This document shows, in pieces, positions 30,246-30,609 of a stretch of DNA of 64,000 nt. A model generated the notes under the pieces. That model made no database searches and was not told where the DNA came from. It saw only the letters and a program-made list of their open reading frames with translations. Position numbers and translations under genes: made by a program. The stretch lies in assembly GCF_058153355.1 (NCBI RefSeq), contig NZ_CM177019.1, one strand, 5' to 3'. Position 1 is the stretch's first letter. Each line of letters starts with the position of its first letter.

Positions 30246-30290
30246 AGGGCAAAGCGGAAACGGATAAGACGGGGATAAATGAAGAAGAAA

Positions 30291-30367
30291 TGGCGCGCCC
30301 TGCAGGATTCGAACCTGCGGCCCACGACTTAGAAGGTCGTTGCTCTATCCAACTGAGCTAAGGGCGC
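30291..30367 (-). tRNA. argU: tRNA-Arg (anticodon UCU), argU
   Basis: Minus-strand sequence gcgcccttagctcagttggatagagcaacgaccttctaagtcgtgggccgcaggttcgaatcctgcagggcgcgcca: cloverleaf-compatible, anticodon loop cttCTaa, 3-prime CCA; matches argU. Confidence 0.93.
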
Positions 30368-30609
30368 GTTGATACCGCAATGCGGTGTAATCGCGTGAAT
30401 TATACGGTCAACCCTTGCTGAGTCAATGGCTTTTGATCTGGTTGCTGAACAAGTGAACGACCACGTCTGATTTTCTGATTTATTTCGCTATAGCGGCAAA
30501 CAAACGCACCCCGCTGCGCATCTGAATCAAGAAAACCCGTATTTTCATGTATCAAAGTACAATTTCCAGCCCTAACGGAAAATTGTCCTACCCTGTGAGA
30601 CTGGTAACT

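Follow-up and report, generated by a model that had tools for sequence, protein, structure and literature searches.

The argU–envY junction of an Escherichia coli chromosome, a probable unoccupied attachment site for DLP12-type prophages

Genes and features around argU

The window, that is, the whole 64-kb stretch of DNA that was analysed, has the same gene order as K-12 on both sides of argU, with nfrB-nfrA-ybcH-envY on one side and fimZ-sfmFHDCA-folD-cysS on the other. It is collinear with the K-12 chromosome, at 95–97.6% identity, except for DLP12, IS186 and one insert of 1.1 kb. The envY gene (29484..30245, plus strand), identified from the list of open reading frames and by tblastn, is intact and encodes an AraC-family regulator. 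Its 253-aa product is 99.6% identical to K-12 EnvY by tblastn, and the exact EnvY allele of the window is very common (50,285 blocks in an exact-protein look-up). Convergent with envY is the gene for tRNA-Arg(UCU), argU (30291..30367, minus strand). ARAGORN finds a single tRNA in the 64-kb window, a tRNA-Arg(tct) at exactly this position, and the Rfam tRNA model RF00005 matches 30294..30367 with 72 bits. The gene is intact: it folds as a cloverleaf with the anticodon TCT, is identical to K-12 argU at 77/77 nt by exact pattern match, and is preceded by a promoter-like site. This site, of the sigma-70 type (30399..30426, minus strand; TTGACT-16 nt-TATAAT, 11/12 in a consensus scan), is identical in sequence to its counterparts in K-12 and a B2 strain when these are aligned, and it would be expected from its sequence to serve as the promoter of argU. 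No terminator was found between argU and envY by consensus scan.

Since the envY reading frame ends at 30245 and argU has its 3′ end at 30291, the two genes are separated by a spacer of 45 nt (30246..30290, no strand assigned). The position of argU, its strand and its distance from envY, as given in the initial annotation, are thus borne out by ARAGORN, Rfam and the end of the envY frame. The spacer differs from K-12 by 2 SNPs and, in a four-way alignment, lines up with the attR bacterial arm of K-12.

On the other side of the tRNA, fimZ (30610..31243, plus strand) occupies the bacterial side of attL. Its start at 30610 is 242 nt from the 5′ end of the tRNA, a distance equal to that in K-12. 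The gene is frameshifted, as seen from two tblastn HSPs in different frames and from DNA alignment: compared to K-12, 1 nt is deleted between 30983 and 30984 (fimZ nt 375), which leads to a premature stop at 31014. The predicted truncated product of 134 aa retains the receiver domain but is without the LuxR/GerE-type DNA-binding domain. A 134-aa fimZ gene is called in locus L014, and the deletion is common to two near-identical assemblies, GCA_015332025.1 and SRR28786219, and is therefore no read error of a single assembly.

Several other features of the window were noted. At 6826..7795 there is a tandem duplication of a toxin-antitoxin locus, hok/sok (hokE-type), with a unit of 502 nt and copies that are 96–97% identical; the two full-length Rfam matches to sok lie at 7071..7225 and 7573..7727. 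K-12 has an IS186 next to hokE, which is absent from the window. Between cusS and nfrB, about 1.1 kb (21948..23064) is extra compared to K-12 and contains a 148-aa open reading frame (22326..22772) with no Pfam match, which may be an orphan immunity gene. The same insert is found in E. coli 2020CK-00188. Other strains carry fragments of Rhs toxins and a transposase of the ISAs1 family at this position, which is therefore a variable hotspot. Rfam matches at gathering score to the small RNAs STnc480 (51884..51950), naRNA4 (43641..43719) and ES036 (6085..6126) are unrelated to the junction.

The junction and the 47-nt att core

In K-12, the cryptic prophage DLP12 is located at argU, bounded by attL and attR, as reportedly described by Lindsey et al. 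in 1989. The K-12 record annotates DLP12 at 564755..586056 (21.3 kb), with intD at one end, appY and ompT towards the other, and argU and envY on its two flanks, in agreement with the initial annotation, in which a prophage of roughly 21 kb separates the two genes. The window sequence was put in K-12 orientation before the junction was compared to K-12 by blastn. Two matches were obtained. The match on the fimZ-argU side (97.3%) runs to 2 nt beyond the tRNA, and the match on the attR-envY side (98.3%) begins at the duplicated 3′ segment of the tRNA, such that the two overlap by 50 nt, at the att core. The same picture emerges when the window is aligned four-way with K-12 attL, K-12 attR and a B2 strain: it follows attL until the core and attR afterwards. 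The junction consists of the bacterial arm of K-12 attL, one core, and the bacterial arm of K-12 attR, with nothing between them.

The core, defined as the segment common to K-12 attL and attR and to phage attP, consists of 47 nt (30289..30335, minus strand), of which 45 nt are the 3′ end of argU and 2 nt lie beyond it. Its sequence, CTTCTAAGTCGTGGGCCGCAGGTTCGAATCCTGCAGGGCGCGCCATT, is found in K-12 at either end of DLP12. It occurs as a single copy in the window, with 0 mismatches (0 expected by chance), and no second copy was found in the 64-kb window even at 3 mismatches; the att core is thus not duplicated. No insertion sequence, scar or partial core was seen at the argU-envY junction. Blastn detected no DLP12 interior DNA in the 64-kb window (E≤1e-5), and neither OmpT nor IntD has a match there. 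A query with AppY gave one match, the paralogue EnvY (44% identity). The site is therefore unoccupied, and ompT and appY are absent from the locus, as had been proposed; argU lies 45 nt from envY because no DLP12-type prophage is inserted there. The junction has the scar-free sequence expected of a reconstituted, or never used, attB, and agrees with such a site in every feature of an attB for argU-targeting phages of the DLP12 IntD type that can be read from sequence.

The same junction is carried by two independent near-identical assemblies, GCA_015332025.1 and Logan SRR28786219, which differ from the window by 3 mismatches in about 22 kb, without gaps. The exact junction pattern, validated in the window, was not found in the GTDB species-representative collection. 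Another possibility is that a prophage was dropped by an imprecise deletion, illegitimate or IS-mediated as in the loss of ompT from E. coli B, or by a collapse of the assembly. Such deletions do occur in E. coli, since the B-derived strain BAP1 lacks both ompT and the envY side (one place matched). At the junction studied here, however, no base is missing from either flank, both envY and argU are intact, the single core is exact, the spacer is conserved, and there is no insertion sequence. Further evidence against these alternatives is that the two independent assemblies share the junction, as do 2507 complete genomes. Together, these alternatives have a negligible probability, and a deletion of the E. 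coli B type is refuted by the base-exact attB.

We conclude that the region at 30289..30335 is very probably an intact, unoccupied attB for lambdoid phages with a DLP12 IntD-type tyrosine integrase directed at the 3′ end of argU. Because other strains have an identical site that is occupied, it should be competent for integrase-mediated recombination.

The 47-nt sequence is present in identical form in 13 Escherichia phage records. In the lambdoid phage 2G7b (NC_049954), the order is methyltransferase, alpha/beta hydrolase, ompT, core and integrase. Three occupied loci with the exact EnvY allele of the window (L005, L007 and L009) contain envY followed by an omptin gene and then phage tail genes, with the exact 47-nt core between envY and the omptin gene. 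Thus, ompT is cargo placed beside attP in sequenced lambdoid phages, which is a useful general point. The course of events that underlies the polymorphism can be outlined from these arrangements. Phages that target argU bring an attP core that is a copy of the 47 nt at the argU 3′ end, and on integration they come to lie between this gene and envY. Since attP provides the 3′ portion of the tRNA, a complete tRNA gene is regenerated at attL, and excision gives back attB without trace. Owing to its position beside attP, ompT becomes the attR-proximal gene, adjoining envY, upon integration. Short contigs with E. coli argU and DLP12-type integrase sequence were also encountered in a Segatella copri MAG (L020) and in Streptomyces triticisoli (L022), and are almost certainly E. 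coli contamination of these assemblies.

Frequency of the empty site and the status of ompT

To what extent the empty site is shared was read from a query of 1 kb across the junction against 5426 complete RefSeq E. coli genomes. Contiguous envY-argU-fimZ was found in 2507 of these 5426 genomes (46%), O157:H7 strains included. The remaining genomes form two groups. In one, the match to argU-fimZ lies apart from the match to the envY side, and the site is thus occupied; in the other, of B2 type, the match is at argU only. The B2 strain NCTC9022 carries a 3-kb remnant at argU (an integrase fragment, a tail-fibre-assembly fragment, a methyltransferase and ompT) and is without envY and the sfm/fimZ cluster. 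The five complete genomes nearest to the window in this region all have an empty argU site. The empty argU-envY junction is one of two common alleles of this locus in E. coli, and the empty argU site is an ordinary and already described state rather than a new one. The rarity implied by the initial annotation is not supported, as 46% of the complete genomes are alike in this respect and the absence is textbook knowledge for Shigella and EIEC (PMC5723341).

Because ompT is cargo beside attP, its presence tracks whether the argU site is occupied. Of the 5426 complete genomes, 3095 contain ompT of the K-12 type, so at least 176 genomes (2507 + 3095 − 5426) have both an empty site and ompT. In a joint test, a concatenated query of the junction and ompT was used, and the places matched per record were read on a spread sample and on the nearest relative. 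Among the 28 empty-site genomes in the spread sample, 23 were matched at one place (no ompT) and 5 at two places, with ompT elsewhere; the latter comprise four genomes of O157:H7 or PA11 and a strain from cattle. About 80–85% of empty-site genomes are without ompT. Where it resides in O157:H7 is illustrated by strain RM8376 (L017; NZ_CP064383.1, 1342323-1367276), in which the argU site is empty and ompT lies at 12001..12954 of the extracted locus. There, close to minCDE, it forms the end of a different prophage and has the same alpha/beta hydrolase neighbour, with IS elements on its flanks and no argU core nearby.

No ompT place was found in WL297, the closest genome at the junction (99.6–99.7%), or in 2020CK-00188, the closest over 25 kb. 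On the strength of these two relatives, the source strain is probably OmpT-negative. Natural OmpT negativity had been put forward at the outset, and it is likely; it is not a necessary consequence of the empty site, given the five of 28 empty-site genomes with ompT. The ompT query addresses the K-12 type, as plasmid omptins of the ompP/arlC type are too divergent for megablast and would escape it.

The value of the locus is thus mainly one of annotation, for a strain that is probably without chromosomal OmpT, and its wider significance is small. The absence of OmpT is relevant to protein-expression hosts, to the cleavage of antimicrobial peptides and to the stability of IcsA in invasive strains. 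With its argU site free, the strain would also be open to lysogeny by argU-targeting phages. As the presence or absence of a DLP12-type element at argU is a common, documented polymorphism, the window makes no open question testable.

Origin of the empty state and comparison with known systems

An empty site could have been retained from an ancestor or restored later. The most parsimonious reading, which we mildly favour, is that this lineage has kept the ancestral arrangement. An identical junction would result from scar-free excision or from allelic replacement, and the four-way alignment contains no bases, in the core or in the arms, that separate a never-lysogenised site from an excised one. 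The initial annotation had named precise prophage loss and a never-lysogenised lineage as the two possible origins, a dichotomy that is correct as far as it goes and that omits replacement by homologous recombination.

Some guidance is provided by the genus. The E. albertii type strain has the order sfmF-fimZ-argU-envY-ybcH, with no integrase and no ompT. In its locus (L019, NBRC 107761; reverse-complemented, 4105..4829), the argU-envY spacer measures 725 nt, compared to 45 nt in E. coli, and contains one open reading frame of about 170 aa; no similarity of this spacer to the window or to DLP12 was detected. The synteny of E. albertii would thus favour an empty order as ancestral at the genus level only. 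Representatives of other Escherichia species (E1V33, MOD1-EC7003 and SCPM-O-B-8794) have integrase-side sequence after argU, and occupancy is therefore also old.

A rival reading is precise curing, according to which an ancestor was lysogenic for a DLP12-type phage carrying ompT, and excision by integrase and excisionase restored attB exactly. The junction is exactly what excision regenerates, and intact phages with an argU-type attP and ompT exist. Occupied sites are common, both in E. coli (about half of the genomes) and in the other Escherichia representatives, and DLP12 excision has been reported in K-12 (PMC4632033). Curing of this kind leaves no trace, however, and hence no positive evidence, and a gain followed by a loss is not needed because the closest complete relatives are all empty and the order in the outgroup E. 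albertii is prophage-free. We therefore regard precise curing as unlikely, if still the foremost of the alternatives to ancestral retention.

Allelic replacement would have exchanged an occupied locus for an empty allele by homologous recombination, importing the flanking nfrA-envY and fimZ-sfm DNA. Identity to the closest complete genome varies between 94.9 and 100% per 1-kb tile from 18 to 43 kb, so recombination in the region is frequent and such a replacement is plausible in principle. The best match also shifts along the window, with WL297 at the junction and 2020CK-00188 elsewhere, in a mosaic typical of recombination. This mosaic, however, speaks for recombination in the region and is not proof that a prophage was removed, and the 99.6–99.7% identity of the junction tile to an empty-site genome is equally expected under vertical descent. 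Allelic replacement thus appears improbable, and less credible than precise curing. Retention of the ancestral empty site accounts for the same observations in the simplest way.

Among complete E. coli genomes, the closest reaches 98.4% identity to the window over 25 kb. The exact SfmD protein is encoded in only five contigs of a large public collection, some of them surveillance-type assemblies. Together with the mosaic identity (18001..43000), this scarcity indicates a rarely sampled, recombinant E. coli lineage, which may be cryptic clade I.

The window can be set against several well-described states of this locus. In E. coli B and BL21, chromosomal ompT is absent. The B-derived BAP1 also lacks the envY side, which is consistent with a larger, imprecise deletion. 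The window differs from E. coli B in that both flanks are intact and attB is clean.

The window also resembles the Shigella/EIEC “black hole”, as the DLP12 region and ompT are absent there, as at the locus in the window, and the same two histories, never hosted or excised, are considered. Compared to Shigella and EIEC, there is no sign of an invasive pathovar in the 64-kb window. An identity of 95–97.6% to K-12 is also more divergent than expected for Shigella, and a Shigella origin of the window is accordingly unlikely. It could still be argued that the window stems from a divergent lineage undergoing pathoadaptive, Shigella/EIEC-like loss of surface factors, marked by the absence of the prophage and the fixed fimZ frameshift, in which the empty attB reflects selected curing and not a neutral polymorphism; we consider this highly improbable. 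The location of ompT in DLP12 and its absence from Shigella and EIEC have been described (Nakata et al. 1993, summarised in PMC5723341). Because OmpT loss is so widespread, that review leaves undecided whether DLP12 was excised from the Shigella/EIEC lineages or had never entered them (PMC5723341); since the question of loss versus never hosted was already posed there, it is not new.

Other empty-site E. coli are close counterparts. The empty junctions of WL297, O157:H7 and 2020CK-00188 likewise have the order nfrB-nfrA-ybcH-envY-argU-fimZ-sfm, the 45-nt spacer position and a single core, and WL297 is 99.7% identical to the window at the junction. The lineage of the window differs from other empty-site E. 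coli in being rare and mosaic and in its fimZ frameshift, and O157:H7 is unlike the window in that it carries ompT in another prophage.

The core and the bacterial arms of the window are the same as those of the K-12 DLP12 locus and of engineered ΔDLP12 K-12. Between its cores, K-12 has a defective prophage of 21.3 kb with intD, emrE, nmpC, appY and ompT, all of which the window is without, such that the window resembles K-12 from which DLP12 has been cleanly removed. Phage 2G7b and its relatives, with the identical 47-nt core beside the integrase and ompT beside attP, represent the kind of element that would fill the site. The window itself is free of phages of this type; 2G7b is the mobile partner, which contributes attP, and the window contains the chromosomal site.
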